A DNA stretch of 64,000 bases from assembly GCA_011364985.1 (NCBI GenBank), contig RDOC01000001.1, forward strand, positions 256,001 to 320,000, in the 5' to 3' direction. Of this stretch, positions 19,301 to 43,566 are shown piece by piece. A program made the translations under genes and the position numbers. The stretch is from Candidatus Thorarchaeota archaeon. Lineage in GTDB: Archaea; Asgardarchaeota; Thorarchaeia; Thorarchaeales; Thorarchaeaceae. A model generated the notes under the pieces. It was given only the letters and a program-made list of their open reading frames with translations. It had not been told where the DNA came from and made no database searches. Each line of letters begins with the position of its first letter. Within the stretch, counting starts at the first letter, position 1.

Positions 19301-19303
19301 CTT

Positions 19304-20602: not shown

Positions 20603-20753
20603 CTTTGAACACCTTGTATTTGCAGTTGTACCCTCTGCTCTTTAGTCCTGCCTAAAGGGATTTACGCAATGGCTATGCACATACTGCATCAGAGAAGTCC
20701 TATTATGCCAGATTTCCCTAATGAATCTTCAAAGATAATGGATCGAGATTGAG

Positions 20754-22202
20754 ATGGCAATTGAGAAACGCAACCGAACCAAAATTGTATGTACCATAGG
20801 GCCGGCCTCAAGGTCCGGAGAAACCCTAGCAAGAATGATTGAGGCAGGTATGGATGTTGCACGACTCAACCTGTCCCATGATACTCATGCAATCCACAGA
20901 AAGACCTTCGAAACCATTAGGTCAGTCGACGATTCGATCCCGATTCTATTTGATATTCAAGGCCCGAAGATCAGGATAGGCGATATGAAAAAGGCAGTAG
21001 AACTGCAGACAGGGGATTCCTTCACGTTATCAATCAAGGACTTTGTTGGGAACAGAGAGCGAGCATCAATATCGCACAAGGACCTTCCGAGGGATGTGAA
21101 ACCTGGGGATGTCATAGCTATCAATGATGGGATTGTAAGACTCAGGGTTAAGGAGATTGATGATGATGAGGTGCGTACTGAGATAACGCACGGTGGTCCC
21201 ATCTCAAGCAGAAAAGGAGTGAATGTACCAGGAATACGATTGTCTTGTGGAGTGCCAACAGAGAAAGACCTGAAGGACTTGGACCTCGCAGCTGAACTGG
21301 AGCCCGATCTAATTGCCATCTCCTTTGTTGTTGACGAGAACGACGTGAGACGCGTCAATAAGATTCTGAAATCGAATGGACCAAAGAATGTCGATGTGAT
21401 AAGCAAGATTGAGCATACTTTGGCTGTAAAGAATTATCCCGCCATTCTTGAGGAGTCACATGGTGTGATGATTGCCCGTGGTGATCTGGGTATAGAAGTT
21501 CCAATTGAAGAGGTCCCGATTCTTCAAAGAGACCTGATTCGCGAGGCAAACATGTGGGCTCGAGCAGCTATAGTTGCAACGCACATGCTGGAATCAATGA
21601 TACATGAGCAGATGCCCACCAGAGCTGAAGTAAGTGATGTTGCCCACGCCGTTTTTGATAGAGCAGATGCAGTGATGCTCAGTGGCGAAACGGCCATTGG
21701 ACACGATCCTGTTGGCGCCATTGAAATGATGAAACGCGTCGCAGGAAGGGCCGAGAAACGAATTACTCCCATCAAACCAGATGATATCACATCGCCAAAG
21801 AAGCTTATTGTGGAGGTCATAGGCAGCCTTGTCTACAATACAGTGGCCCTTCTTCCCGACAAGATTGGCGGGGTGATTACTGCAACCAGAAGCGGATTCA
21901 CAGCAAGATGGATCTCAAAGTTCAGACCACCCACGAACATCTATGCAGTCACCAACGATCCAGCAGTCGTAAGGCGACTTAGACTCTGGTGGGGTGTGTA
22001 TCCTGTGAAATACGACCAGGACATCCAAAGCGTTGATGACTTGGTTATGGAGGCAGTTTGCGCAGCCCATGAAAGAGAACTCATCAGTATAGACAAGGAT
22101 GTCGTATTCACATCTGGAGTGAGGCACATCCCTGGAAAGACTAATGTTGTTGGAGTGTTTCATGTGCGCGATCTGGTACAACTCCCCAAGTCTAGATACT
22201 GA
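20754..22202 (+). CDS. pyk: pyruvate kinase
   Basis: TKIVCTIGPAS, RLNLSH, KIE, ARGDLG, MLESM, PTRAEVSD, MLSGETA motifs. Confidence 0.98.
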   Translation: MAIEKRNRTKIVCTIGPASRSGETLARMIEAGMDVARLNLSHDTHAIHRKTFETIRSVDDSIPILFDIQGPKIRIGDMKKAVELQTGDSFTLSIKDFVGNRERASISHKDLPRDVKPGDVIAINDGIVRLRVKEIDDDEVRTEITHGGPISSRKGVNVPGIRLSCGVPTEKDLKDLDLAAELEPDLIAISFVVDENDVRRVNKILKSNGPKNVDVISKIEHTLAVKNYPAILEESHGVMIARGDLGIEVPIEEVPILQRDLIREANMWARAAIVATHMLESMIHEQMPTRAEVSDVAHAVFDRADAVMLSGETAIGHDPVGAIEMMKRVAGRAEKRITPIKPDDITSPKKLIVEVIGSLVYNTVALLPDKIGGVITATRSGFTARWISKFRPPTNIYAVTNDPAVVRRLRLWWGVYPVKYDQDIQSVDDLVMEAVCAAHERELISIDKDVVFTSGVRHIPGKTNVVGVFHVRDLVQLPKSRY

Positions 22203-22557: not shown

Positions 22558-25500
22558 ATGATGAACAGAAATCAATCTGCGGTGTTTCTTGTCACAATAT
22601 CAGCCGTTGTCTTGGCAACAACACTCCTGATTCTCTATTTCTTGTCCACCCTTCCACTGACCATCGGACCTATTGCCCTGCTGATCCCAGTCTCTATGGT
22701 TGCACTTACGTATCTTGGAATAAAGAATGATACAGAGAGAACATTTCGTATTGATATTGGGAATAGATTACCATGGGAATTGCTCATTGTTGGGATCTGG
22801 GCGGCTCTACTTATTCTGGCCCTATTGCCGAGAGAGACGATGAGCCTGATTTTTGTACCATGGGAAAGTCTGGATGTTTTAGACTTAATACTCTCCGTTT
22901 TCTTTTTGCCGCTCACTTCATTCTTTCCGGGTTATGCAATCCTGAAAGTGGGATTTGACGATATGGACCTTGGGATTCCAGTAAAGCTTCTGATAGCCTA
23001 TATTCTTAGTTGGTTCACCTCGGCTCTATCTGGCTATGTAAGTGTCCTGTTTTTCAGGAGCTCAGGTTTTGCAGGAACCATTCATCTAGCTTTAAGCATT
23101 ATTCTCCTTGCACTCCTTTCCTTGCGCATCTTACTTGAAACGCCAATAGAAGACTCTGAAACAATCGAGGTTCCATTAAGTCTAGTCTTAGTTCTCGTGC
23201 CCATCATCATCGTAGTATTGGCCTCTACTATAGTAAGCAACTTCCCGTTCATAGCCGTCCCCTACAATGACCAGTGGGTTATTTTCGGGGCCACTCTGAG
23301 AATGATGGACAGCACGGTCGCGTATAGTTTTCCGTACTACTGGCCTCAGCTGCATTATTCCACAGTACTTGGTATTAGCAGAATCAATGCTATGAATACC
23401 TACATGTTCCTGCCATTCTTCTCTATCCTAACACCTTTCTGTTTCTATTATTTTGCCAGAGCTTTTGTTGACAGCAGAATCGCAGTGCTTTCCACTCTTG
23501 TTTATACTCTTTTCAGTGGATTAGGATGGATTGCAATTATTGGCTTGACTACCATACAATATTCAGACCTCGCGTTTCTAGGTGATGAGATGGGACTGCA
23601 TCCAATGGTCAGGCCGTTATTTTTTATATATCCCAAGATCTTCTCATCTGCCTGCATCTTCATTGCGATGTATCTAGCCTTTAGAAAGAATAGGGGAAAT
23701 GGTAATTGGAAAACCCCTTTGTTGATTGGAACTCTAATCGCCATATCATACCTATGGCATTTACTTGAGGCGCTGTTGCTCATCTATATGCTAGTCCCAT
23801 TAGCGATTATTATCTATCGCGAGAGAGATTCGGTTAGGCTGCTAACCACAGGCTCCGCATTTGGCATGGTTCTAATTGCCATATTCGGGACGATGAACTC
23901 TGACATATGGAGCTCTAATTTTCCGAGGCTATTTCCGGTCTACCTATCACCCTTGGTCATAGTCGCCATATCAGCAATCATCATTTCATTTGTTGTGCTA
24001 TTGCTGAGAAGTAGAGTGTCGTTTGATTTAGGAAGATATCAAAGAATCACAGACATGGCATCCTCAAGAAGACTTGCAGGAGTAGTGTCTGGAGTACTAC
24101 TGATGATTAGTGCCGTTCTGGTTATTCAAGGACTCGCAGACCTCTATCAGAGTATATCTGACTTGTATGCGATGCGACTGAATTTGTATCCTGTGAAATT
24201 GGGCATATCACTCTTCCTTTTCGTTGCTGCGATTGGGATCGCTCATGAAGAATCAAGGCCCATGACGATTGCAATAACTTTCGTTGCAATCATCTTCTTG
24301 GTGGGGCATACTTATGGATACATTCTTTCGCTCACAGCGAGCGAGGGAAATACGATTCTTTTCCACGACCTTTCGATTCCAATTCTGCCGGAATGGAGAT
24401 TCGTTAGGCAGTATTGGCATTGGATCGCCCTAGCAGCAGGTATTGCTATTCATCGTATCATCTCTCTCGGACGAATTAAAATGCCTAGAATAAGGCCCCA
24501 GCTCCCCAAGATTGCATCAATCACAATCATACTTTGTATTTCGCTAGTTGGAGTATGGGATACGGTCTTGGTCACAGACTATGTGATGAGGGATACATAC
24601 GCTAGTATCAGCCAAGAGGAACTAGGAGGGATATCTTTCTTGAATAACCTGCCGTCAATTGGAACTTGCCTAGCTCCGGGACTATCGATATCAAATCCAC
24701 GAATAGTGACAAGGTTCACCAAGTTAATCCTTGATTCCTACAATAATGACGTATTCTCTTCGACTACTCCCGAAGAGCTTGCGTTGTTGGCATCCATTCT
24801 ATATAGGGAGTCGATTGGAATGGTCCCTGTGTACTATTTCGAATTGGACAGGCTACGTAACACATTGGACTACCATGCTGAGGAGTATTTCTATCAATAC
24901 ATAGTGTCATTTCTTCAATTTATGTATCAGGATGAATTCTCTAGGGTGGGAAGTGTCCCGACATTTTTCCCACCTGACGATTCACCGAGGATCTTACTGC
25001 TTGTCCCTAGTCTTCATGACAGTAGCTACTCTGAGTATTCGGATGCATTCTACACGCATTTCTTGCCTGCAAATATGCTCATGTTCTCGGGCACATCCTA
25101 CGATGTTCGAACCGAATCGGATCTCAGGATTGATGAACAGACGAGTTTTATCATCTCAAGCAATCTGTCTCTAGCCTCTGAACCGTACATCGTGTCATGG
25201 ATTAACAACGGCAATACCTTCATTTTGCTAAACACAACTATGCCTTATGCTTCCTCAATTCGATTGGGAGCTGCTGACGAATTGGTGGCAGCTGGTTCGG
25301 AAGTCAATTGCACTTCTGTGGAGGTGGACTACTCACTAGAGGTATCTCCGGATTGGAGTATCTTGGCGTGGTACTACAACAAGGATGTTCCAGTATCACC
25401 TCTTGCCACCTCGAAGAAATCTGGTGCTGGGGAGATATGGACACTAAAGATGTGGCCATTTACAAACCTATTGAATCCTATGTTCGGGCAGGATGTGCCA

Positions 25501-26139
25501 TGGCTGGTCGCGAATGCACTGACAAAAATCCCTTTTCTTCTAAGCTTACCTAGATTTCATGATGTAAGTGAGCAAATCGAACTTGAAATAGTATATAGCC
25601 CTCTGAATTGCGTGGGCAATATTTCCATTGAGAGCACAAGTCTTGTTCTTCGGAATTGTCCAATAACCAGTTTTGTCTTAGATTATCAAAATGGCACTCT
25701 ATTTGAACATCCTCTTGAATTGGCCACAGTAATCAGGAATTTGGCCCTACGAGGAACCTATAGCATTTCAATCTCTACTAGTTCATGTAGATTATCGACC
25801 AATCATTATACTTGGTATAGTACGTTGTCTTCATCTGATGCTATTCATGTTGAAATTGACTTGAGTGCCGGATCACTAGCCAGATTTGACCTAATAAGCA
25901 GCGCACAAACAAATTCGATTGAAATTGGCGAGGGGATGATTCATTTTGTCTTGGACTCGCCTAACAGACAAGTGGCATTGAACTTGAAATCTGCAGTGTT
26001 TTCGGTGGAGGGACAAGTCAGCTACTTTGATAGGAATTTGCAGCGAAGAAGTGCTAGTGGGTTGATTGAATTTCAGATACTTGGCAGTGGATCTAGTATT
26101 ATTTGTAGCGAATGGAGTGTTGAGCACCCAAGTCCATAG
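22558..26139 (+). CDS. large polytopic membrane protein, putative GT-C glycosyltransferase with extracellular C-terminal domain
   Basis: ~670-aa multi-TM region (FFPGYA, NDQW in the first large loop), then a soluble beta-rich region with N-x-S/T sequons. Paralog of 28336-32262. Confidence 0.65.
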   Translation: MMNRNQSAVFLVTISAVVLATTLLILYFLSTLPLTIGPIALLIPVSMVALTYLGIKNDTERTFRIDIGNRLPWELLIVGIWAALLILALLPRETMSLIFVPWESLDVLDLILSVFFLPLTSFFPGYAILKVGFDDMDLGIPVKLLIAYILSWFTSALSGYVSVLFFRSSGFAGTIHLALSIILLALLSLRILLETPIEDSETIEVPLSLVLVLVPIIIVVLASTIVSNFPFIAVPYNDQWVIFGATLRMMDSTVAYSFPYYWPQLHYSTVLGISRINAMNTYMFLPFFSILTPFCFYYFARAFVDSRIAVLSTLVYTLFSGLGWIAIIGLTTIQYSDLAFLGDEMGLHPMVRPLFFIYPKIFSSACIFIAMYLAFRKNRGNGNWKTPLLIGTLIAISYLWHLLEALLLIYMLVPLAIIIYRERDSVRLLTTGSAFGMVLIAIFGTMNSDIWSSNFPRLFPVYLSPLVIVAISAIIISFVVLLLRSRVSFDLGRYQRITDMASSRRLAGVVSGVLLMISAVLVIQGLADLYQSISDLYAMRLNLYPVKLGISLFLFVAAIGIAHEESRPMTIAITFVAIIFLVGHTYGYILSLTASEGNTILFHDLSIPILPEWRFVRQYWHWIALAAGIAIHRIISLGRIKMPRIRPQLPKIASITIILCISLVGVWDTVLVTDYVMRDTYASISQEELGGISFLNNLPSIGTCLAPGLSISNPRIVTRFTKLILDSYNNDVFSSTTPEELALLASILYRESIGMVPVYYFELDRLRNTLDYHAEEYFYQYIVSFLQFMYQDEFSRVGSVPTFFPPDDSPRILLLVPSLHDSSYSEYSDAFYTHFLPANMLMFSGTSYDVRTESDLRIDEQTSFIISSNLSLASEPYIVSWINNGNTFILLNTTMPYASSIRLGAADELVAAGSEVNCTSVEVDYSLEVSPDWSILAWYYNKDVPVSPLATSKKSGAGEIWTLKMWPFTNLLNPMFGQDVPWLVANALTKIPFLLSLPRFHDVSEQIELEIVYSPLNCVGNISIESTSLVLRNCPITSFVLDYQNGTLFEHPLELATVIRNLALRGTYSISISTSSCRLSTNHYTWYSTLSSSDAIHVEIDLSAGSLARFDLISSAQTNSIEIGEGMIHFVLDSPNRQVALNLKSAVFSVEGQVSYFDRNLQRRSASGLIEFQILGSGSSIICSEWSVEHPSP

Positions 26140-28335: not shown

Positions 28336-31300
28336 ATGGGAGATTGGTATGAAGCAATTGGCTATCAGCAGAGAAGAAGTGAGAAACTAGCAAGACATCT
28401 ATTGAATGCAATTATGGCAGCAATATTCCCGTTTCTGATAGTTATCCTTCTTCCTTATGCAATCCCCTTCAGATTCGGATTTGCCGTCATTGTTTCAGTC
28501 ATTGCAGGACTGACTGCAATCATCATCACAGACACTGAAACCATTATTGTCTATTCTAATACGATAAAGAGAAGTCAACTAATGTTTGTTATGCTCTATA
28601 CAGGGCTAATCCTCATTACTGCATTGTCATTGGGAACCCCTTTCGAACCGGTTGTTCTGGCATCCAGAGATCTGACTCGCTATTTGCCCAGTTTCCTAGT
28701 AACGGTATTGCTTACATCGTTCATGCCAGGATATGCAATTGTTGTATCTGTTATGGAAGATGCAACAGACACCACAGAGAGATTGGTGTATTCAATTCTA
28801 AGTAGCTTCTTGGTTACAGGATGCATCGGATTCATCTCGTGGAATTTGAGTGCTATGGCACTCTCCAAGCCGATTCTTGTCGCAACGAATCTTCTAATTC
28901 TGGCAGTATACGTGATCTACAACATAATCAGTGAAAGGCCCGATTCGATTTCATCGGAGCGTTCCAAGACTAAAATGAGCATAATGAATGCAATTGTGCT
29001 TGTTGTGCTATCTCTATTCTTGTATTTGACATATTTCACTGTGCACAATATATTCGAATCATCACTCCCAATTGTAGGGGATGAGTTCGATCATGTTGCG
29101 TATATTGCAAAGCTTCTTTCTAATTCAGTCACATGGCAAGAAGATAAGCTGGGGATACTCACAACACCGTCATACCCGTACCTTTTCCATCTGTTCATGG
29201 CCGTCTGTGTGACTATATCTGGAATCGCTGTTGCAGATTATCTCCTGCTCAGTGCCTTGATACTACTACCCTTACCAATGTTGGCATTCTATGTCATGAG
29301 TAAGACAGTAACTGGAAATTCCAAGCAGTCCATTGTTGCTACTGTACTCTTCCAAGTTACTTCCGACTTCGGTTGGCTCATTGCCATTTCTTCATACTCA
29401 GGCACCAATGACCTTCAGACAATCCTAAGTGTATCAAATGATACCTGTAGCATTATCTTTTCTCTGTGGCTGCCGATTATTGTTGCACCCTATCTGATAG
29501 ATCTAGCCGCGTTCTTGTTGATTATGGGACTGATGTTCAACAAGAATGCAGACTCAGGGAAACTAGTGACAATCTCGACTATTCTTCTTATTATTAGCAT
29601 ACTTAGCCATATGGAGAAAGCATTAATCATAGCGGGACTCACTGGTATCCTTTCACTGATTGGAGTCATAACAAGTAAACGGGGCATTAGGACAAAAGAG
29701 ATAGGAGCTGCCCTAGTTCTCGCCTCGATAGTTGTTATTGTCATCGATCTAGTGGCCCTCAGAAGGCTGTTCACAGCATATTACATAGCCACCTTGGTTG
29801 TTTGTATTGTTGCAGGGGAGTTGGCCTATCTCGTAAGCGACAGGCATTTCAATTCCAAATCCATTCAAAATTGGCTGACTTACAATTATAAACCAACAGC
29901 AATCGTTGCGACTTTGCTTTTTGTGGGAACTGCATATTTGGAGTTCATCTTTGGTAAGACTCCAGGTGCACATTGCTCCTGGATTCCCCTCTTTCTTATT
30001 CCACTTAAGCTAGGTATTGTCGGAGTACTAGCCGGTATTTGGCTCCTAAAATTGGACTTTCGCAACGCCAGAAAACACGGAGTTCTACTTGTGCTGGTGT
30101 CCTGTGTAATTCTGGGGGAGATAGGTCTATATCACGCGGGCATACCATTTGCATTGATCGTAGGCTCCATTTTGGATGAGTTCAGATACGTCAGAGATGT
30201 TGTATGGCCGATTTTTTCATTAGCTGGGTCTGTGGCACTCTTCGTGCTAGTGGAAAGAATACAGAGGTTCCGCGCTCCATCCTTTATGAGAAAGATAACC
30301 AAAGGATTGGTTCCAAGTCTGGTCATTGGATTGCTCCTTGCCTCAAGTATACCATCCCATCTACTGAAGATTCAGTACAATGCTGCTAATAGCGGGATAA
30401 ATCAAAACATTGAGCCGGTTGTAGAATTCATGGATACACTGAATATCACAGATGGAGGCACAGTTTATGCCCCCGCAAATCTGGCAAGAAGTGTCGCTGC
30501 AGTCACCGGAGCAATTGTATATTCTCCATCAACGTCAGTTTATGGTCCATTGCTTTCCGACGGGTCAGACATATACACAACACTGTGGCTTTTAAATTAC
30601 CTCAACGTGCAATACATGATTCTCGACAAGCCAAATTCGATAGTGGGAATTGGACCTGTTGCAGAGATGTCACCTATCCTGTATAGCGATAGTGCATATC
30701 GGGTCTGCCAAGTACTCACACAGTCAGGCCCCACATTGACATCAAGTACCGCTCTTGTTGATGACCATGTCGTAGAACGCTTTGGAGAGGAAATTGGATT
30801 CGGCATGAAGCCAAGTTGGCAAGAATCATTTTCGAATGTTTCGAACTGGGTGGCAGCTCCCATGACGTTCACTAATGTCTTAGAGTACTCGTTGACGACA
30901 AATGAGGACGGGGAAGCTCAGCTGATGGCATCTGGAGTGGCAGGAAGCAAAACGGTCATGCTATATCAGATGCTCTTTGATGCTGGACTACAAGTGGAGA
31001 AGGGAACGTATATTGGTGTTAGGTTCAAAACTTCGCCCGGTGCAAAATTACTTGTTCAGATTCTTTACAACGATAGGACAATGAGCAATGCGCGCCTTGG
31101 AAGCACACCGTATCTGCAGTCAGAAGACTGGATATCATTAACCACATATCTTGATAATGTTGGGGCTAACGTAACAGGGCTAAGAATCGGTCTTACCAAC
31201 ATATACAATGAAGATGTATCCGAGTTGAATGGGAGTATTGACTATCTAGTGATTAATAGAGAGGATTCTAATCGTGCTGATGCGGCCATACTTCTTTCCA

Positions 31301-32262
31301 TGACGAATCTCAATTTCACGACTATATCAAGTTGGGATTCCATCCTTGAAGCTCAGCCTTCAGTAATCATAGCATCAGAGGATTCAACTTACGGGAATCT
31401 GACTAGCTTCTTCGCACGCATCAATGAAGACTCAAGAGTGATTCTTCTCGGAAATCTAAATGAAAGCAGTAGCATCCAAGACTATATCGACATCACAAAC
31501 CTCAACTGCTCAACAGTAGCTGATTCCCTTGTTGCATCTGATGAAACATGGAATATTCCTTCTATGCGAGTTGATTGCATATCAATATCAGGCGGACTGG
31601 TGCTTAGTACATATGCTGGAAATCAGAACCTGCCCTTTCATGTAAGATTATTTGTCAACGACACAAGGCAAATAGACTATCTGAATGTGTGGCCTCTTAT
31701 CGAAGCTATAAGGGGAACAGGTAATGAAGACGCTTTGGGAGAAGCACAGCTGGCATTGACCGAATACCTCCAGATTCAGTTGATGCTTCCAAGTTGCTCA
31801 TATATTGAACGAAAATTCTATTTGAAGAACTCAGGATTTGTTAGATATGCTGGTACTCTTGAAATAGAAACAACAGGATTGATTCTGCCGCATATCTTAC
31901 AGAATGAATCCTTAGGAAGCTTAACTAACGCCAGCATTTTGGTGGTTGAAGGGGAAGCGAGATTTGAGCCCGCACAATTTGGCTACTTGATCATCTCTAT
32001 ATCCGGCAGAATTCAGGTTTATGGCAATGCTGGTATTCTGAATGATCTTGAGGTGGAAGAGTGGAGTGCAATTGCTAGGATTGTAAGAATTTCAGCCAAT
32101 GCCTCAGTTCATTTCAGCTCCTTCACATCATCTTTCCCATATGCTTTCGAGATATATTCATCTGAATATGTATTAGAAGGCCTCAGTAATCTGTCGTATT
32201 TGCCTATGTCTCAAGGCGTCCTGCTCATCTATGCAAACGACCCGACAGTATTTGGTTGGTAG
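28336..32262 (+). CDS. large polytopic membrane protein, putative GT-C glycosyltransferase with extracellular domains
   Basis: FMPGYA...ERLVYSILSS, GDEFDH acidic loop motif, YPYLFH; ~630-aa soluble C-terminal region rich in sequons. Confidence 0.65.
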   Translation: MGDWYEAIGYQQRRSEKLARHLLNAIMAAIFPFLIVILLPYAIPFRFGFAVIVSVIAGLTAIIITDTETIIVYSNTIKRSQLMFVMLYTGLILITALSLGTPFEPVVLASRDLTRYLPSFLVTVLLTSFMPGYAIVVSVMEDATDTTERLVYSILSSFLVTGCIGFISWNLSAMALSKPILVATNLLILAVYVIYNIISERPDSISSERSKTKMSIMNAIVLVVLSLFLYLTYFTVHNIFESSLPIVGDEFDHVAYIAKLLSNSVTWQEDKLGILTTPSYPYLFHLFMAVCVTISGIAVADYLLLSALILLPLPMLAFYVMSKTVTGNSKQSIVATVLFQVTSDFGWLIAISSYSGTNDLQTILSVSNDTCSIIFSLWLPIIVAPYLIDLAAFLLIMGLMFNKNADSGKLVTISTILLIISILSHMEKALIIAGLTGILSLIGVITSKRGIRTKEIGAALVLASIVVIVIDLVALRRLFTAYYIATLVVCIVAGELAYLVSDRHFNSKSIQNWLTYNYKPTAIVATLLFVGTAYLEFIFGKTPGAHCSWIPLFLIPLKLGIVGVLAGIWLLKLDFRNARKHGVLLVLVSCVILGEIGLYHAGIPFALIVGSILDEFRYVRDVVWPIFSLAGSVALFVLVERIQRFRAPSFMRKITKGLVPSLVIGLLLASSIPSHLLKIQYNAANSGINQNIEPVVEFMDTLNITDGGTVYAPANLARSVAAVTGAIVYSPSTSVYGPLLSDGSDIYTTLWLLNYLNVQYMILDKPNSIVGIGPVAEMSPILYSDSAYRVCQVLTQSGPTLTSSTALVDDHVVERFGEEIGFGMKPSWQESFSNVSNWVAAPMTFTNVLEYSLTTNEDGEAQLMASGVAGSKTVMLYQMLFDAGLQVEKGTYIGVRFKTSPGAKLLVQILYNDRTMSNARLGSTPYLQSEDWISLTTYLDNVGANVTGLRIGLTNIYNEDVSELNGSIDYLVINREDSNRADAAILLSMTNLNFTTISSWDSILEAQPSVIIASEDSTYGNLTSFFARINEDSRVILLGNLNESSSIQDYIDITNLNCSTVADSLVASDETWNIPSMRVDCISISGGLVLSTYAGNQNLPFHVRLFVNDTRQIDYLNVWPLIEAIRGTGNEDALGEAQLALTEYLQIQLMLPSCSYIERKFYLKNSGFVRYAGTLEIETTGLILPHILQNESLGSLTNASILVVEGEARFEPAQFGYLIISISGRIQVYGNAGILNDLEVEEWSAIARIVRISANASVHFSSFTSSFPYAFEIYSSEYVLEGLSNLSYLPMSQGVLLIYANDPTVFGW

Positions 32263-32547: not shown

Positions 32548-33693
32548 GTGATTGACTTGAGCATAAGTATCTGCTTCGTATCAGGACTGCTGCCGCCAAT
32601 CTCTGTTGGAGGTGTGGAAAGGTACGTCCTAAATCTTGTAGAGGAACTCCCGAATACAAAGTACAAATCGCTTATCATTAGTCATCATTATCGTGGATTA
32701 GGAAAGCTTGAAAGAAAACACAATTGCCGTATCTATCGAGTTGGCTGGAACCCATTGCCATATAGTCAGGTTCGCATAATCGGTTCTATCTCCAGAGAGC
32801 TTAGCAACTTAACGTCCCTTCTTGACAATGTAAAGAATCATTGGTCATTCGATATTGTTCATTCTCAATTTGGTGAGTTCAGTGATGTTGTGTATGGGAC
32901 AAAGATTTGCAGAGAAAACGAGGCAAAGCATGTGGTTACCATTCATGGGAGATTCGGTACGCAATTCGAAGATATAAGAATGAATTCCAGAAGACTAGAT
33001 GTTCTCAGAAAAGCGGATTACCTAATTACGAATAGGCAGCAAACATTTCAGTACTTGTTGAAAATGGGCTTTGAGAAACTTGCTCTCCTTCGCAATCCTA
33101 TACCTGTTTCGAAATACAAACGCCCAGATCAAGAAACACCCCCAAGAGAAAGGAAGAACATCGAACTCCTTTTCTTGGGTCGCCTAAGTCTACGAAAAGG
33201 ACCATTTTTGGCAATTCAAGGATTTGCCTATGCCGCGAAGAAAGACCCCAATCTGAATCTCTGCATGGTTGGTGGTGGTGTGCTTGAAAAGCAACTAAGA
33301 GCATTTGCTGAGAAGATGGACTTGAAAGATAGGGTCCATTTTACGGGACCTCGGCTTGATATCAGACCATTTCTTTGGAAATCGGATGTGTTCCTTGCGA
33401 CATCTCCGACAGCGAACTCACCGAGCCTTTCACTTCGAGAAGCTATGGCCGCAGGTATACCTGTTATCGCGACTGATGTAGAAGAAACCGGTACTGTTGT
33501 AAGAGATGGGAAAACAGGGCTGCTAGTAAAACCCAATCCAAGGGCTCTAGGAGAGGCTATTCTTAAACTGACTGGAGATGAAAACATGATGAAACGATAT
33601 CGAATGGCTGCGGCCAAACAAGCTGAAATCGAGTTTGATCTCAACGGGTACGTTAGCGCTTTGGACAGAATCTATGATGCAATTATGGAGTAG
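32548..33693 (+). CDS. glycosyltransferase family 4
   Basis: GGVERY, VVTIHG, FLGRLSLRKG, N-x7-E(AMAAGIPVIATDV). Stop overlaps the murA start (TAGTG). Confidence 0.92.
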   Translation: MIDLSISICFVSGLLPPISVGGVERYVLNLVEELPNTKYKSLIISHHYRGLGKLERKHNCRIYRVGWNPLPYSQVRIIGSISRELSNLTSLLDNVKNHWSFDIVHSQFGEFSDVVYGTKICRENEAKHVVTIHGRFGTQFEDIRMNSRRLDVLRKADYLITNRQQTFQYLLKMGFEKLALLRNPIPVSKYKRPDQETPPRERKNIELLFLGRLSLRKGPFLAIQGFAYAAKKDPNLNLCMVGGGVLEKQLRAFAEKMDLKDRVHFTGPRLDIRPFLWKSDVFLATSPTANSPSLSLREAMAAGIPVIATDVEETGTVVRDGKTGLLVKPNPRALGEAILKLTGDENMMKRYRMAAAKQAEIEFDLNGYVSALDRIYDAIME

Positions 33694-34988
33694 TGAAGTT
33701 CCTTATGGTGAAATCTCTGAGAATTAGGGGTAAAGAGCCGCTTGATGGAAACGTAATGATTAGCGGCAGTAAGAATGCTGCAATTCCTTGCATTGCAGCA
33801 GGAATCCTCACCGATGAACCCATAATACTTCATAACGTTCCTGCAATTGAAGACATACATACTCTATGTGAAATTCTTGCAGCCATGAGTGTGAAGGTGT
33901 CATATGATGATGAGAGGACTACTCTGAGGATGCAGTGTATCAACCCTTCTTCCGATATACCTCCTTTGCTTTCCACGAAAATGAGAGGTGCCACTCTTCT
34001 TATGGGAACTCTCCTGGCCCGTTGTGGAGAGGTGATTTTCGAATCCTATGGGGGATGCCCCATTGGGGAAAGACCAATTGACTACCACCTTGATGCATTT
34101 AGGAAACTTGGAGCCAAGATAGATACGAAAGGAAACCAAATCAGAGTATCTGCGAAGAAACTCAAGGGAACACTCATTGAACTCCCATTTCCAAGTGTCG
34201 GTGCTACCGAAAATTCGATACTTGCAGCATGTTGCGCCAAAGGCATGACCACAATAGTCAACATGGCAGTTGAGCCAGAAGTCATGAATCTTATTGAGAT
34301 GCTTGGCAAAATGGGAATGCAGTACACCTTTGATGTGGCCAAATCACGAATTGATATCGAAGGAAAGACAAATCTTCAAGGCATAAGGCATTCGATAATT
34401 CCAGATAGACTTGAGGCGGGAACGTATTCTGTTGCAGCGGCAATCACCAAAAGTAGCATAACGATTCATCCTGTTGTAGAAGCTCACATCAGTCAAGTCA
34501 TTCAGGCGCTAAGGGATGCACGAGGGACTATTGAACTGGAATCCGGAATGACCATGAGAGCAGATTTCTCCGACATATGCTTAAGTCCATTCAAAATCGA
34601 AACCGGACCCTTTCCAGCCTTCCCTACTGACCTGCAACCACAGTTTACATCGCTAAGCACTCAAGCAGAAGGCAGGACTTCAATCATTGAAACGGTCTTT
34701 GAAAATCGATTTGGGCATGTTCCCGAGTTGCAGAAGATGGGAGCCAAGATCCAGATCTCTCAAAGAGAATTAACAATAGATGGACCTGTGAGTCTCAAAG
34801 GTGCACATGTAACGGCAACAGATATCCGGGGAGGAATGGCGCTGATTCTTGCCGCGCTTTGCGCAGAGGGTTCAACTACTGTCAATGGATTTGAAATCAT
34901 TGAAAGGGGTTACGACTCTCTAGAGAGCAAATTGAGCAATCTAGGAGCGAATATTGAGGTGATAGAGGACGAGGAACAACATAAGTGA
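33693..34988 (+). CDS. murA: UDP-N-acetylglucosamine 1-carboxyvinyltransferase
   Basis: SGSKNAA, MRG, GGCPIGERPIDYH, PSVGATEN, EPEV, PDRLEAGT, FPTDLQ, FENRF, TDIRGG, ERGY all present. Confidence 0.95.
   Translation: MKFLMVKSLRIRGKEPLDGNVMISGSKNAAIPCIAAGILTDEPIILHNVPAIEDIHTLCEILAAMSVKVSYDDERTTLRMQCINPSSDIPPLLSTKMRGATLLMGTLLARCGEVIFESYGGCPIGERPIDYHLDAFRKLGAKIDTKGNQIRVSAKKLKGTLIELPFPSVGATENSILAACCAKGMTTIVNMAVEPEVMNLIEMLGKMGMQYTFDVAKSRIDIEGKTNLQGIRHSIIPDRLEAGTYSVAAAITKSSITIHPVVEAHISQVIQALRDARGTIELESGMTMRADFSDICLSPFKIETGPFPAFPTDLQPQFTSLSTQAEGRTSIIETVFENRFGHVPELQKMGAKIQISQRELTIDGPVSLKGAHVTATDIRGGMALILAALCAEGSTTVNGFEIIERGYDSLESKLSNLGANIEVIEDEEQHK
34956..34963 (+). promoter_or_regulatory. archaeal Shine-Dalgarno GAGGTGAT
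   Basis: Lies 5 nt upstream of the in-frame ACG at 34969 of the FrhB-like gene. Confidence 0.5.
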
Positions 34989-36264
34989 AGTAGTCCGAGA
35001 TAATCAATGCGTGGGGTGTGGCGCCTGCGAATTGGCGTGCCCTCATCAGGCCATAGCAATGGCAGTTGAACATAATCGAGGTGTTTACAACGCGATCGTG
35101 GATGAAACAAAATGCGTTTATTGCGGAGCTTGCATCGACGTTTGCTTTGGTGCAGCAATAGAACATCACGAACCAAAGGAATCTTTGCAGCGTCTTATTC
35201 AAAAAGGAAGAGGAATGGAAGTAGCCCGCTATGGATATGCCACAGATTCAAATCTCAGGTTTCGGGCATCATCGGGAGGGGCAGTTACAGCTCTGCTGAC
35301 TCACCTGCTCGATGAGGGGCATATTGACGCTGCAATTGTCGTGAAACTTGCGAGCACTGATCCAGCTCTTGGAGTTTCATTGATTGCCGAGTCCAAAGAA
35401 GCCATTCAAGAAGCAATGGGGTCGAAGTATTGTCCTGTGAGGATCAGCACTGCCCTAAAGCAGATGAAAACGGGAGCCAAGTATGCATTTGTTGGACTGC
35501 CTTGTCAGATATACGCAACTAGGAAACTTCAGGAGAAGGGAAGACTAAATGGCGAAATCAGTATCTATATTGGATTGTTTTGTGGAGGCACGCTTAGCTA
35601 TCATGGAACGAGGTATATTCTCAGACAGAATGATGTTGAATTCAGTAATATACAGGCAATCGGATACAGGGGATTCGGATGGCCTGGACGATTCTATGCA
35701 GAAACGAAAGATGATGTTATTTCTCTCCCATTTGTTACGTATTGGCCAAATATAGCTAGATGGTTCTATCTTGATCGTTGCCTGACATGTCTTAGTGGAC
35801 TGAACCTAAATGCGGATGTCAGTTTTGGGGACTTTTTCTCAAGGGAACATATTTCAACTGATCCTCTTGGCACATCTGTTATGTTAGTCATGTCTGGAAT
35901 TGGAGCTGAAGCTCTATCATCAACTGAGAACGCAGGTCATTTGCATCTCAAATACACAAGCATCAAGAAGGTCATTGAATCACAATCATCCATGTTTCTC
36001 AAGCATAGGAGATACCCAACAAGACTTCTGATATTGAAATTGCTCAGAATGGGAAGACCCTCAAAGGGCCGGTATGAATCAAAACTAGGTTTCAGAATTA
36101 GAGACGCTTTGGATGAGCTTCTTCTTCATTCAGGTCGAGCCCTCGCCTCTAGACCGGGACTATGGCCCTTTTTTGATGTCTTTAAGAGTCTCATGACTGT
36201 GTATAGTCGGATTGTGATGATTATTGGCAAGATTATTGTGCGAAATTCAAGTCTGAATCTCTAG
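34969..36264 (+). CDS. FrhB/FdhB-family (F420 hydrogenase/dehydrogenase beta-like) oxidoreductase with N-terminal 2x[4Fe-4S] domain
   Basis: CVGCGACELACP and CVYCGACIDVC, then ASSGGAVTALL, GSKY, VGLPCQ, IGLFC, YRGFGWPG, RCLTC, ADVSFGD. The first Cys lies upstream of the track's GTG 35011, so the start is extended to 34969. Confidence 0.85.
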   Translation, partial: TRNNISEVVRDNQCVGCGACELACPHQAIAMAVEHNRGVYNAIVDETKCVYCGACIDVCFGAAIEHHEPKESLQRLIQKGRGMEVARYGYATDSNLRFRASSGGAVTALLTHLLDEGHIDAAIVVKLASTDPALGVSLIAESKEAIQEAMGSKYCPVRISTALKQMKTGAKYAFVGLPCQIYATRKLQEKGRLNGEISIYIGLFCGGTLSYHGTRYILRQNDVEFSNIQAIGYRGFGWPGRFYAETKDDVISLPFVTYWPNIARWFYLDRCLTCLSGLNLNADVSFGDFFSREHISTDPLGTSVMLVMSGIGAEALSSTENAGHLHLKYTSIKKVIESQSSMFLKHRRYPTRLLILKLLRMGRPSKGRYESKLGFRIRDALDELLLHSGRALASRPGLWPFFDVFKSLMTVYSRIVMIIGKIIVRNSSLNL

Positions 36265-36317: not shown

Positions 36318-37856
36318 TTGCATGTAGAAAATACCGCCGAGGTGCAAGGTAGCTTGGATTTGTCCAACGTAATCAAGAGTGCTGTTTTCATATATATAGG
36401 AGGATTGGTCACGAATATTCTGGGTTTCGTATTCTGGCTAGTTGCATCTAGTTACGTACCCCCAGATGTTGTTGGATCGGCTTCGGCCATCATAGCCCTT
36501 CAGGCACTTCTCATGACCATAATGACCATAGGTCTTCCTACAGGATTGCGTCGCTTCGTTGGAAAAGGCGGCAGTGAAGAAAGATATGATTTGATTTCTG
36601 AATACTTCGCAACAAGTATGGGCGTTAACCTCCTTCTCAATCTGCCTGTTTCACTGATTCTGATAGCTGCACCCGCTCTTCACTATAGTGGTTATGGATT
36701 ATCTGCAATAGAACTTGCATTTGTGGGGACTCTTATTCTACTTAGTTTTTGGGCACCAACTCTAGTTTCATTGTTCGATTCATTGTTGAAAACTGAAATC
36801 ACTGCCCTAGCCCAAGTACTCTCTTCGATTGTAAAACTTCTTCTCGGGCTAATGATGCTGATTCTCGGTTATGGATTCTTGGGAGTCATGATGGCATTCA
36901 TAGCGGCATCAATTACAACTGATTCAGTATTGCTATACCACGCGCGGAACATGTTCAGAGAATTTGGATATCAACCTAGGTTTGAATCAGACCGTATAAG
37001 AGAACTAGTGGAATCTGGACTGCCTGCATGGATTCCGAATATGTTGACGATAGCAGGACAATCCGTTGCCGTTCTTGTAATCTATGGATTAGTTGGAGAG
37101 AGCCAAACGGGCCTCTATTACTTAGCTTTCGCCATGGCACAAGTTGTATACACGATACCAACAAGCATTCAGAGTCTAATGTACCCAGTTTTGAGTGGTA
37201 TGAAAAGCGGACGAGAGGATGCCATTCGCCGCACTACACGTGTTTCTCTTATAGCCACAGCGCCCATTGCATTAGCTGTCGCATTGTATTCTGAAATTCC
37301 ATTCTCCGTAATAGGACCAGCATACTCAGATGCAGGTCCTCTTCTGGCAATACTCGTAGTCGGAGCGATGTTCTGGTCAATTTATGTTGGATATTATGGA
37401 TATCTATATGCAATAAAGGAATACAGGCATGTGACTGGATTGGGACTTGTTCTTAATGGAACAAGGCTGGCTTTGTATTTCCTTCTTGCTTCGTTGTTTG
37501 GTGCCATGGGAGTCGCCTTTTCCTTCATCGGGGGAATTCTCGTTGCAATGATCGGCCTTGCGTTTTCCTCAATTAGCATTGGTTACAAACCAGATTGGAA
37601 GAAGTACTTCCTAGCAATTATTATCCCGAGTACTTCCGTCATACTTGTCTGGCATCTCAGTGTAGAATGGATACTGGGAATTCCATTCATTCTTATTTGG
37701 TCATTCATCTTGTATGGAAGACTGAAGATTATGACGAGGACAGACATCTTTGAGGTGTTCTGCGGTTTGTTCACTCCTGAGAAAGCCTTGAGTATAGCAT
37801 TGCGTCTTAGGCCAGTATCAAGAATAGTGTTTGGAAAACAGAACGTAGATGAATGA
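36318..37856 (+). CDS. oligosaccharide flippase (MOP/Wzx family)
   Basis: ~14 TM; GLPTGLRRF, TGLYYLAF, SLMYPVLS, FGAMGVAFS motifs. Confidence 0.85.
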   Translation: MHVENTAEVQGSLDLSNVIKSAVFIYIGGLVTNILGFVFWLVASSYVPPDVVGSASAIIALQALLMTIMTIGLPTGLRRFVGKGGSEERYDLISEYFATSMGVNLLLNLPVSLILIAAPALHYSGYGLSAIELAFVGTLILLSFWAPTLVSLFDSLLKTEITALAQVLSSIVKLLLGLMMLILGYGFLGVMMAFIAASITTDSVLLYHARNMFREFGYQPRFESDRIRELVESGLPAWIPNMLTIAGQSVAVLVIYGLVGESQTGLYYLAFAMAQVVYTIPTSIQSLMYPVLSGMKSGREDAIRRTTRVSLIATAPIALAVALYSEIPFSVIGPAYSDAGPLLAILVVGAMFWSIYVGYYGYLYAIKEYRHVTGLGLVLNGTRLALYFLLASLFGAMGVAFSFIGGILVAMIGLAFSSISIGYKPDWKKYFLAIIIPSTSVILVWHLSVEWILGIPFILIWSFILYGRLKIMTRTDIFEVFCGLFTPEKALSIALRLRPVSRIVFGKQNVDE

Positions 37857-39546: not shown

Positions 39547-40974
39547 TCAAGATAACTTAGAGATTATGAACTTCAGCTTCCCTCCCTGACTGGGAATGTC
39601 TTCGGTTGCTTCCATTAGAACAGGAACTTGTTGCTGCGTTTTCTCCAGCAGGATGTTTCTGACTTTTCCTATTGCGCCACGATAGTCTCTATAAGATTTA
39701 TTGGGAACAAAACGAAGAACGATCGAGTAGTCTGCATTTTGAATGAATTGAAACATTTTTACAGCTTCCGGACAAGCATCGAAGATGGTGGTGAGGAAAT
39801 CGCCACTCAATACGGTACCATTTGGAAGTCGTATCATATCTGACTCACGCCCTCTAACATGGTCCATAAGTGGAAAAGGAAGACCACATGGACACTGCCC
39901 TTCAATTAACCGACCGCGGTCCTCGTTCAGATATCGGATTATCGGGAATGCATAGTTCTCTAAATCTGTTACAACAATATCTCCGAACTCTCCCTCTGCA
40001 CATATCTCCCCATTCTTCACGAATTCGATATGGCGTATATCAGATTCTATGTGAAGACCAGTATGTTGGTTGCATTCAGCGGCAAGCCAGTAGACTTCTC
40101 CGCAACCGTATTGATCATAGACCGGAGCATTGAAGACTTTTTCAACAAGGTTTCGTTGAACCTCACTTATAGGAGAAGAGGTTAACCATACAGCTTTGGG
40201 CGGTGGAAGTTCTATGCAGTGATCATCCACGTACTCGGCCAGATGACATATGGCTCCAACGTAACCTTGTAATAGTCGAGGCTTGATGCATTTGTATTTT
40301 CTTATGAAACATCGTATGGAACTCTCTGTCATTGAAGCCGCGTCAAGTAGTACTCTTTTTGTCGGCCACCAGAATGCACAATACGCTAGGTCTTGAAATC
40401 TGGATTGGCGAACATCCCTGAAAACAAAAGCACCGTCATCCCAGGGTGCCAAATCCCATCTTGCCAAGAGCCTCCATCCAATTGCATGCAAAGGAACTCT
40501 TCTGTCGTGATATACTCTGAGTGGTATGCCGGTAGATCCACCAGTAGTCGACACTTGGAAATATCGCTTGTCCACTTCCATAGCCATGATATCGGCCAAG
40601 TTCTCTCGAATATCGTTCTTCGTGAGGAAAGGTATTTTCAGGAAATCATCAGGCGTTTTTACGTCATCTGGAATTATGCCTGCAGCCTTGAATTTCCTTC
40701 TATAGAAAGGGACTGATTTGTATGCATAACGGAGCAGTTTCTTTCGCTTTCGCCAGTTCAATTCTGCTAGTTCTCTTGAACTAAGACATTGGTTTCTTAT
40801 CAGGCGTTCATAGTACGCTGAGGAGTTGGTGTTCAGAAGAAAGAATTTTGAGTAGAAGTACGAACTCGTGAGTGAACGAAACAATCGATACTTGGCTCCT
40901 TTTAGGTCTTGATTCCATTCTAATGAGCAATATAAATGATAATAGCACTGCTGCAAACAGAGGCATGTTTTCAA
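39547..40974 (-). CDS. phenylacetate-CoA ligase/CapK-family adenylate-forming enzyme
   Basis: VPFYR, TTGGSTGIP, YDQYGCGE, PIIRY, GRESD, GGKLK. Start uncertain, likely up to ~30 codons downstream. Confidence 0.88.
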   Translation of the reverse strand: MKTCLCLQQCYYHLYCSLEWNQDLKGAKYRLFRSLTSSYFYSKFFLLNTNSSAYYERLIRNQCLSSRELAELNWRKRKKLLRYAYKSVPFYRRKFKAAGIIPDDVKTPDDFLKIPFLTKNDIRENLADIMAMEVDKRYFQVSTTGGSTGIPLRVYHDRRVPLHAIGWRLLARWDLAPWDDGAFVFRDVRQSRFQDLAYCAFWWPTKRVLLDAASMTESSIRCFIRKYKCIKPRLLQGYVGAICHLAEYVDDHCIELPPPKAVWLTSSPISEVQRNLVEKVFNAPVYDQYGCGEVYWLAAECNQHTGLHIESDIRHIEFVKNGEICAEGEFGDIVVTDLENYAFPIIRYLNEDRGRLIEGQCPCGLPFPLMDHVRGRESDMIRLPNGTVLSGDFLTTIFDACPEAVKMFQFIQNADYSIVLRFVPNKSYRDYRGAIGKVRNILLEKTQQQVPVLMEATEDIPSQGGKLKFIISKLS

Positions 40975-42459: not shown

Positions 42460-43566
42460 TTGTATCTTGAGATTCAATGGGGAGTATTGACAGCTGCATG
42501 TACTCTGCCTATGTATGAAGATTTAAAGAGAAGGTTTGACATCGAAAAGGTCAGCAGAATCATGGGTGTGGGCAGGGTAAAGGAATTCAGTGTTTACATA
42601 GAGAACTCAAAGCCGCTAAACCAGAAACTCAACGATGGTTTAGGTCACATACAATGGAGACAAATTATCAGAACTGATGACCACGTATTTCTGAAACCAA
42701 ACTTCACTTTTCCATCATACCGTTATGGTGTGACGACATCTCCGTGTCTTCTTGAAGCTCTATTAGGAATTCTGAAGAATCGAGCTTCAGAAATAACAAT
42801 AATAGAATCAAATGGTGGAAACAATGTCTTCACAGCTGACGAAGCCTTCAGAGGACATGGCATTCCAAAGCTGTGCAAAGAATTCGGAATAGACGCTGTA
42901 AACCTATCAGACTGTCCTTCTACAAAGGCTAAGGATAAGATTGGTTCAAGAACGGTAGAAGTGAGCGTACCCAGATTTCTGCCGAATGAAGTGGATTGTT
43001 TTGTATGTGTGCCCGTTCTGAAGGTACATGCAATGACCTTGGTTTCGCTGGGAATCAAGAACCTGTGGGGGTGTCATCCAAATCCCATGAGATGCCTCTA
43101 TCACGAGGATATCGACAAGAAACTTGCGCTTCTCACCAAGCTCTGGAATCCGCGAATCTGCATTATAGACGGGACCTATGCACTAGACGGACATGGACCA
43201 ATGTTTGGCCAACCTGTTGAAATGAATCTGCTGATTGTTGGGAACAATGTTGTAGCAAGCGATAGCGTCGGAGCGAGTGTGATGGGCTTCGATCCCCATC
43301 ACATCAAGCACATAAGAGTGGCGTCGGAGGAGAAACTCGGTCCTATCGATTTAAGGTCGATTAGAGTAAACACAGATTGGAGAAGGTTCTGCAGGGTTTT
43401 CTCGTTCAAGAGAACGCCGCTTGATTATTTATCTTTGGTACCATTTCACAGCGAACTTCTTGCAAAGATTATTTTCAACTCACCATTCACTTCCGGGATT
43501 CGAAGAATGGTAGACATAATCAGGACTTCTGACGAAAAGGAAGACCTAAGAGGGTACGTAAATTAA
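42460..43566 (+). CDS. DUF362 domain protein
   Basis: LKPN, GVTTSP, VPVLKVH, LGIKNLWG, IIDG..GHGP, ASD, MGFDP. Probable start ATG 42562. Confidence 0.82.
   Translation: MYLEIQWGVLTAACTLPMYEDLKRRFDIEKVSRIMGVGRVKEFSVYIENSKPLNQKLNDGLGHIQWRQIIRTDDHVFLKPNFTFPSYRYGVTTSPCLLEALLGILKNRASEITIIESNGGNNVFTADEAFRGHGIPKLCKEFGIDAVNLSDCPSTKAKDKIGSRTVEVSVPRFLPNEVDCFVCVPVLKVHAMTLVSLGIKNLWGCHPNPMRCLYHEDIDKKLALLTKLWNPRICIIDGTYALDGHGPMFGQPVEMNLLIVGNNVVASDSVGASVMGFDPHHIKHIRVASEEKLGPIDLRSIRVNTDWRRFCRVFSFKRTPLDYLSLVPFHSELLAKIIFNSPFTSGIRRMVDIIRTSDEKEDLRGYVN

Follow-up and report, generated by a model that had tools for sequence, protein, structure and literature searches.

In bacteria, the conversion of uridine diphosphate N-acetylglucosamine (UDP-GlcNAc) to UDP-N-acetylmuramic acid (UDP-MurNAc) takes two enzymes: MurA, which moves the enolpyruvyl group of phosphoenolpyruvate (PEP) onto the sugar, and the flavoprotein MurB, which reduces the resulting enolpyruvyl ether to a lactyl ether. 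MurB is, to our knowledge, the only enzyme known for the second step. That Archaea lack muramic acid is textbook knowledge. Here, a murA gene of an archaeon is described together with the gene that follows it. Both lie on a stretch of 64,000 nucleotides (hereafter the window) of Candidatus Thorarchaeota archaeon (GenBank assembly GCA_011364985.1, contig RDOC01000001.1, positions 256,001 to 320,000 of the forward strand), and the second gene encodes an iron-sulphur flavoprotein related to FrhB (hereafter the FrhB-like protein). A preliminary description, made from the letters of the window alone, had taken this protein for a possible replacement of MurB that would reduce enolpyruvyl-UDP-GlcNAc with electrons from ferredoxin or from reduced coenzyme F420 (F420H2). 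From the comparisons reported below, we put at about 60% the probability that the FrhB-like protein is a ferredoxin-driven enolpyruvyl-ether reductase, a non-homologous functional analogue of MurB that would feed a surface glycan and not peptidoglycan.

Lactyl ethers occur in other bacterial glycans as well. GlcNAc carries them in the Escherichia coli O antigens O69 and O150, and a frameshift in the E. coli gene wfeP leaves O164 with plain glucose where O124 has lactyl-glucose (PMC7685785). Serogroups O69 and O150 thus resemble the system proposed here in having lactyl ethers of GlcNAc in surface glycans other than peptidoglycan, although they are bacterial, and position and configuration of the ether vary between serogroups. 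Among Klebsiella capsule types, K66, K22 and K37, with K8, have a pyruvyl transferase gene but a capsule without pyruvate; beside the pyruvyl transferase gene, K66 has a gene called coenzyme F420 hydrogenase, and K22 and K37 have a nitroreductase gene (PMC4616057). For K22, a title cited in PMC3857182 names a lactyl ether, 4-O-[(S)-1-carboxyethyl]-glucuronic acid, as a constituent. It is suspected that the lactyl ethers of capsules and O antigens in bacteria are formed by FrhB-like proteins of polysaccharide loci, and the pairs that these proteins form with polysaccharide pyruvyl transferases of family PF04230, such as HG203 and wcqF of Klebsiella K66, are the systems with which the window is best compared. 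The features of the window on which the argument turns are the following.

33693 to 34988, plus strand: murA, UDP-GlcNAc 1-carboxyvinyltransferase; start codon GTG at 33693; 462 bits against TIGR01072 and 287 bits against PF00275.

34956 to 34962, plus strand: GAGGTGA, a Shine-Dalgarno-like motif within the 3' end of murA, 6 nt upstream of ACG 34969, read from the sequence.

34969 to 36264, plus strand: FrhB-like Fe-S flavoprotein; ferredoxin N-terminal domain with two [4Fe-4S] clusters, FrhB core and C-terminal helical extension, domains assigned with Pfam.

Judged by its profile score (the cut-off of TIGR01072, the MurA equivalog model, is 392.7 bits), its motifs and its alignment, the upstream gene is a genuine MurA. 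Over its full length it can be aligned with solved MurA structures; it has the equivalents of Lys22, Cys115, Arg120, Asp305 and Arg397, and keeps the catalytic motifs of PDB 6q03_A: SGSKNAA (Lys), GGCPIGERPID (Cys, Arg), FPTDLQ (Asp) and ERGY (Arg). It is also the only gene of the assembly with the EPSP-synthase fold. The public gene call, of 427 residues, is about 4 residues shorter than the frame that starts at GTG 33693. Closest to it are MurAs that are likewise followed by an FrhB-like gene (hereafter cassette MurAs; 46–51% identity) and, after these, MurAs of Bacillota (44–48%).

The genomes that carry the pair were searched for the partners that MurA has in bacteria. TIGR00179 (MurB) had no match in the window's own assembly (G000; 1.70 Mb, 74% complete), in a relative that also carries the cassette (G329; 95% complete) or in genome G400; MurB_C had none in G000, and the three FAD_binding_4 genes of that assembly encode proteins of 477–549 residues and are not MurB-sized. 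Mur_ligase_M was without a match in G000, G329 and G400, and the transpeptidase domain of penicillin-binding proteins (PBPs), PF00905, was without one in G000. Given that neither MurB nor a peptidoglycan pathway was found in these searches, the product of MurA would have no MurB to reduce it and no peptidoglycan route to enter. A housekeeping MurA of peptidoglycan synthesis was rejected on the same grounds, with no Mur ligases, PBPs or MurB found. No redox protein other than the FrhB-like enzyme is tied to MurA. CofD and CofH, of F420 biosynthesis, were not found in G000 or in G329. Many bacterial hosts of the FrhB-like family, for example Klebsiella and Acidobacteria, do not make F420 either.

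These results bear on several points of the preliminary description. Its "MurB replacement" stands in so far as the FrhB-like protein is the best candidate for a functional analogue; a part in cell-wall synthesis does not, as Mur ligases (G000, G329, G400) and PBPs (G000) were not found. F420H2, one of the donors it had named, is unlikely, with CofD and CofH missing from the matches of both carrier genomes checked. Compared with bacterial MurA and MurB, the first enzyme of the window is a true MurA, and the proposed second step is the same flavin-mediated reduction of enolpyruvyl to lactyl. By contrast, the second enzyme has neither FAD_binding_4 nor MurB_C; its fold is unrelated, it has three predicted [4Fe-4S] clusters, and its donor is likely ferredoxin, where MurB uses NADPH. 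The host, moreover, is an archaeon without matches to Mur ligases or PBPs, and the product would go to a Wzx-type glycan and not to peptidoglycan.

Pfam assigned to the open reading frame (ORF) that ends at 36264 the domains FrhB_FdhB_N (PF04422, 76 bits) and FrhB_FdhB_C (PF04432, 104 bits) and a 4Fe-4S dicluster domain. The ferredoxin domain consists of two CxxCxxCxxxC motifs, and the core of the FrhB-like protein is expected to hold flavin adenine dinucleotide (FAD) and a [4Fe-4S] cluster. All 25 alignment columns that are invariant across 76 relatives are retained, among them the eight cysteines of the ferredoxin domain and C175, C201, C267 and C270; the conserved motifs are SSGG, GSKY, GLPC, YRGxGWPG, CxxC (267/270) and DxSxGD. 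The AlphaFold2 model is confident (predicted local distance difference test, pLDDT, 91.5; predicted template modelling score, pTM, 0.91). In it, the last approximately 90 residues (336–426) form long helices that are absent from FrhB itself, a protein of about 280 residues. A hydropathy scan predicted no transmembrane segment. This gene is the sole full-length FrhB-family gene of the window's assembly. That a gene with ferredoxin and FrhB-family domains overlaps the 3' end of murA, as first described, is borne out by the Pfam domains and by the reading frame, and the absence of hydrogenase or formate dehydrogenase subunits nearby agrees with a scan of ORFs of at least 150 residues between 13 and 64 kb of the window, in which none was found.

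Significant Foldseek matches of the model were confined to FrhB-family chains, with 8riu_B, 7np8, 8rja_E, 9r51_B and 5dqr at the top. They comprise the F420-reducing modules of carbon monoxide dehydrogenase and Fmd (8riu_B, 8rja_E), the N-terminal half of F420-dependent sulfite reductase (Fsr; 7np8, 7npa), FrhB (9r51, 6qgr, 4ci0), FdhB (7bkb) and the plant substrate reductase HCAR (5dqr). The probability was 1.00 for 8riu_B, 7np8, 9r51_B and 6qgr_B, and the best structural TM-scores were 0.45–0.61 when normalised by the query and 0.41–0.77 when normalised by the target. Fold and cofactor motifs are common to the window protein and PDB entries 4ci0, 6qgr, 7bkb, 7np8, 8riu and 8rja. It differs from FrhB, FpoF and FdhB, however, in its C-terminal helical extension, in having no catalytic partner subunits and in a host without CofD or CofH matches, and its scores are far below the family cut-offs, with 50.2 bits against 331.5 for the NCBIfam frhB model TIGR03289 and 62.6 bits against 475 for the FpoF model NF040616. 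HCAR (PDB 5dqr) is alike in being a stand-alone enzyme of the FrhB family that reduces an organic substrate and not F420, but it shares 15–17% identity with the window protein in the Foldseek alignment and its tetrapyrrole substrates are unrelated. BciB, a ferredoxin-dependent divinyl reductase, is another member of the FrhB family, with a C=C bond as its target and ferredoxin as its donor.

The order murA, then FrhB-like gene was found in ten loci: the window, L006, L007, L008 (identical to L010 and L013), L012, L092, L093, L094, L095 and L097. L008 belongs to genome G329, a member of the Thorarchaeota from the same family as the window genome. In the nine loci besides the window, the two genes abut or overlap by 8–17 nt, so that the pairing is not a matter of chance; and since the FrhB-like proteins of these loci share only 37–43% identity with that of the window, the arrangement has outlasted a long divergence. 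Gene content downstream of the pair varies among loci. Combined with gene trees that are partly congruent (see below), this synteny supports the partnership with MurA put forward in the preliminary description, and the FrhB-like protein is very probably the working partner of MurA. A MurA–FrhB-like fusion protein was not seen among the longer relatives examined, nor was a bacterial murA–FrhB-like pair, as would be expected of a MurB replacement in wall synthesis, among the best 80 of the 264 relatives' genome loci. In L012, from a metagenome-assembled genome (MAG) labelled Sulfolobales, murA is partial (the C-terminal approximately 185 residues) and is preceded by about 1 kb of GC-rich DNA that has no long ORFs; positions 1–1600 of this locus look like a chimeric or truncated assembly.

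Among the Asgard archaea the cassette is rare. The MurA cut-off was exceeded in only 3 of 400 species genomes, on which ground a wide spread of MurA in the group was rejected, and the cassette was present in G000 and G329 only. All other MurA-type genes of the 400 genomes lack an FrhB-like neighbour and are confined to L009 (G156, contig C176), beside DUF285 repeats, and L011 (G158, contig C84), where a partial copy lies beside a lipoprotein-like signal-peptide gene. These two genes, on short contigs and in surroundings that do not resemble the cassette, may be bacterial contamination of the MAGs.

The family to which the FrhB-like protein belongs is mostly found with other partners. A family profile recovered 78 other genome loci, of which 76 could be placed in a tree; trees were drawn with a midpoint root only, and support was expressed as values of the Shimodaira–Hasegawa-like approximate likelihood ratio test (SH-aLRT). 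PF04230 was adjacent, fused or within 9 kb in 41 of these 76 loci, as detected with our own hidden Markov model (HMM), and Pfam confirmed the assignment for four loci. At least nine natural fusions of an FrhB-like domain with PF04230 were present among longer proteins. The recurrence of FrhB-family genes beside polysaccharide pyruvyltransferases, invoked in the preliminary description, agrees with these results. In 35 of 81 tree-placed loci, our HMMs found neither PF04230 nor MurA within 8 kb. FrhB-like domains were also seen fused to GT4 glycosyltransferases and to heparinase II/III-like domains (P0122, P0123, P0125, P0130–P0132).

In the tree of FrhB-like proteins, one clade has murA as neighbour in all members of known context (SH-aLRT 98, or 100 with more rows). 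Its sister group (99) is PF04230-adjacent and consists of L014 (Bathyarchaeota), L015 (Thorarchaeota) and L096; clade and sister together (99–100) are nested among PF04230-linked members. In the MurA tree, the cassette MurAs form one clade (100), separate from the MurAs of Bacillota. The window, L007 and L008 group together in both trees, the branching orders of which are partly congruent. An exhaustive profile search of 1.84 billion representatives gave 3,519 representatives at E ≤ 1e-30. The top group comprised about five or six clusters at 50% identity (480–627 bits); below it, scores formed a continuum in which murA-linked and PF04230-linked proteins are interleaved, for example P0258 (458 bits) with PF04230 and P0259 (434 bits) with murA. 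The murA-partnered clade is a small, rare variant of the PF04230 plus FrhB-like module, and is archaeal wherever its taxonomy is known. A single exchange of partner, from PF04230 to MurA, is the simplest reading of these trees; the direction of the exchange is likely, resting as it does on trees drawn with a midpoint root. The cassette murA, with its nearest relatives in Bacillota, appears to have been acquired from bacteria.

PF04230 and MurA have unrelated folds; what they have in common is that both use PEP to attach a carboxyvinyl or pyruvyl unit, three carbons in size, to a hydroxyl group of a sugar. Because both kinds of partner share this trait, the reductase would be expected to work on the PEP-derived unit, and this is the strongest argument for the proposed function. 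Pairs of PF04230 with an FrhB-like protein resemble the pair of the window in the reductase family (two [4Fe-4S] clusters, FrhB core and C-terminal extension), in the kind of glycan locus and in the presumed lactyl-ether outcome. They differ in the partner, which in the window is MurA, with the EPSP-synthase fold; no adjacent or fused PF04230 was present in the ten loci of the clade. With MurA in place of PF04230, the acceptor is probably O-3 of UDP-GlcNAc.

The start of the FrhB-like gene in the window is unusual. The reading frame is open from 34966, preceded by TGA 34960 and TAG 34963, and its first canonical start, GTG 35011, falls 3' of codon 35008, which encodes the first Cys of the CxxCxxCxxxCP motif. 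The frame must consequently begin upstream of GTG 35011, overlapping murA, the stop codon of which is TGA 34986–34988. Between 34966 and the first cluster Cys codon there is no ATG, GTG or TTG. Two candidates, ACG 34969 and ATA 34981, are both non-canonical and both overlap the murA stop. ACG 34969, the start given in the preliminary description, maps near the start codons of relatives and lies 6 nt 3' of GAGGTGA, a motif that may act in initiation; ATA 34981 is also preceded by GAGG. In relatives, the start codon (ATG, TTG or GTG) is placed a few codons 5' of a conserved N[IV]xx[IV]V, which in the window reads NISEVV, and TAG 34963 occupies the site of the TTG start of the two closest relatives, L007 and L008. 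The public gene call, P0001 (401 residues), begins at a downstream ATG and loses the first cluster.

The pair stands within an operon for which, together with a gene farther downstream, the following features were recorded.

28336 to 32262, plus strand: polytopic membrane protein of 1308 residues at the head of the cassette; many predicted transmembrane helices in the first approximately 680 residues, followed by a tail of approximately 630 residues.

32548 to 33693, plus strand: GT4 glycosyltransferase, its stop codon touching the murA start; Glycos_transf_1 110 bits, Glyco_transf_4 56 bits.

36318 to 37856, plus strand: Wzx-type flippase (Polysacc_synt, PF01943, 49.5 bits) with multiple transmembrane segments; last gene of the plus-strand operon.

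42460 to 43566, plus strand: DUF362 protein (PF04015, 136 bits).

The 1308-residue protein had no Pfam or NCBIfam match; its nearest Atlas clusters, DUF6541, PTPS_related and DUF6311, scored below 0.9 and serve as a lead only. It is possibly a GT-C-like glycan transferase or polymerase. A membrane protein of approximately 1260–1300 residues, also without Pfam match, lies 5' of the GT4 gene in L006, L007, L008, L092, L093 and L097, and the L094 contig stops within the gene upstream of GT4. GT4 itself is directly 5' of murA in all seven further loci with a readable upstream flank. In L007, L008 and L097, too, a Polysacc_synt gene comes after the FrhB-like one; in L094 it is nearby, on the other strand. 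DUF362 directly follows the flippase in L007 (10923–11804) and L008 (10910–11791), and in the window lies 4.6 kb downstream of it; that it belongs to the module is possible but unproven. A UDP-GlcNAc 2-epimerase (Epimerase_2) occurs near two cassettes, in L006 (10005–10932, split into two ORFs) and in L094 (8721–9803).

Together, MurA and the FrhB-like protein would carry out two successive reactions that yield an amino sugar with a lactyl ether, either UDP-MurNAc or its lactyl epimer, destined for a surface glycan. MurA, as its strong homology suggests, would move the enolpyruvyl group of PEP onto O-3 of UDP-GlcNAc. Single electrons, probably from reduced ferredoxin, would then pass through the two [4Fe-4S] clusters of the N-terminal domain and the core cluster to FAD, and the reduced flavin would pass a hydride to the double bond (C=C) of the enolpyruvyl ether, bound in the pocket where true FrhB binds F420. 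As F420 genes are missing, the site at the flavin that serves F420 in FrhB would be free to take this substrate; ferredoxin, acting through the dicluster domain at the N terminus, is the most plausible source of the electrons. For the later steps, gene content suggests that GT4, the likely user of the modified UDP-sugar, adds it to a lipid-linked glycan, that the Wzx-type flippase exports the glycan and that the membrane protein of approximately 1300 residues transfers or polymerises it.

Other roles of the FrhB-like protein were weighed against this one. A conventional role in F420-dependent electron input, with the protein as the FrhB, FpoF or FdhB subunit of a hydrogenase, dehydrogenase or formate dehydrogenase, a case that the preliminary description had itself, for FpoF and FrhB, set against its proposal, would account for the Pfam domains, for the fold of FrhB and for an architecture like that of FpoF and of the N-terminal half of Fsr. 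It is nevertheless highly improbable, and a true FrhB or FpoF role was rejected, on account of the low equivalog scores given above, the failure to find catalytic partner genes nearby or F420 biosynthesis genes, and a glycan-operon context in every locus. The same chemistry at another substrate level deserves more attention, though we consider it unlikely: GT4 would transfer the unreduced enolpyruvyl sugar, and the FrhB-like enzyme would reduce it when lipid-linked or polymer-bound. PF04230 pyruvyl transferases, the usual partners of the family, often act on lipid-linked or polymeric acceptors, and the long C-terminal helices of the FrhB-like protein could lie on a membrane. The coupling of the gene, however, is tight to murA and not to GT4 or the flippase, and the protein has no predicted transmembrane segment. 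In line with an earlier step, wfeP is described as acting in UDP-sugar synthesis (PMC7685785).

Somewhat less probable again is another redox task in the glycan pathway, such as the supply of electrons to the DUF362 protein or to another enzyme, or work on a different sugar; adjacency to murA would then mean only that both genes act in one pathway, with the enolpyruvyl group left unreduced or handled in some other way. DUF362, an uncharacterised family, does recur in some cassettes, and the 35 of 81 loci with neither PF04230 nor MurA nearby would fit such a role. It is difficult to reconcile with the MurA–FrhB-like pair, which stays adjacent in each of the ten loci whereas downstream content varies, and with the switch from PF04230 to MurA and the PF04230 fusions, which point to a PEP-derived group as the common substrate; ketal pyruvylation, moreover, needs no reductant. 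There is, lastly, a slim chance that the start codon has been lost, the gene being disabled or poorly expressed in this genome and the module decaying here. No canonical start precedes the first Cys codon, and TAG 34963 aligns with the TTG starts of L007 and L008. Yet the frame of 432 codons is otherwise open, every family-invariant residue is kept, the Shine-Dalgarno-like GAGG precedes both ACG 34969 and ATA 34981, and a single-base assembly error is possible.

Against the proposed reductase itself weigh several points. The lack of an ATG, GTG or TTG before the first cluster Cys makes expression of the window copy uncertain. Substrate level (UDP-sugar or lipid-linked), stereochemistry and electron donor are all inferred, and the roots of the trees are midpoint roots only. 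With G000 74% complete, the absence of murB there is weak on its own, and the argument depends mostly on G329. That FrhB-like genes go with lactyl ethers in enterobacteria is a correlation, and a literature search found no paper that tested pairs of an FrhB-like protein and a pyruvyl transferase or any enzyme of the family. The same search found no paper on an archaeal MurA of this kind. The wider proposal, that some Thorarchaeota make 3-O-lactyl-GlcNAc or its epimer for a surface glycan by means of a bacterial-type MurA and a ferredoxin-dependent FrhB-family reductase, is accordingly put forward as tentative.

If correct, it would add a muramic-acid-like sugar to the Archaea for the first time, together with the first enzyme other than MurB for this reduction, a second, oxygen-sensitive and ferredoxin-linked solution to it. 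It would also explain why a wall-less archaeon keeps a MurA with intact catalytic motifs, and would amount to an old transfer of murA from bacteria to archaea that was put to new use. Enolpyruvyl-UDP-GlcNAc, which can be made with any MurA, would then be a clean, soluble substrate for assays of the large, uncharacterised FrhB-like family of polysaccharide loci.

The surrounding 40 kb form a glycan island in which GT4 genes are numerous and which also encodes sugar epimerases and dehydratases, a second flippase and several large proteins of the membrane. Genes for phosphoglycerate mutase, enolase and pyruvate kinase, which make or consume PEP, lie directly upstream of the island at 18059–22202, maybe by coincidence. 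Within the island, the minus strand at 39547–40974 encodes a PaaK/F390-synthetase-like adenylate-forming enzyme (DVU_1553 family, 127 bits); it could activate a sugar carboxylate, for example the lactyl group, for amidation, and is not conserved in other cassettes. Six very large proteins of 709–1308 residues are encoded at 22558–26139, 28336–32262, 46540–49095, 52243–54498, 54502–57138 and 61363–63492. Their Pfam matches were absent or marginal, only 54502–57138 matching PMT_2, and the three that were scanned by hydropathy are all polytopic. It seems that the island encodes a series of GT-C-like glycan transferases or polymerases.

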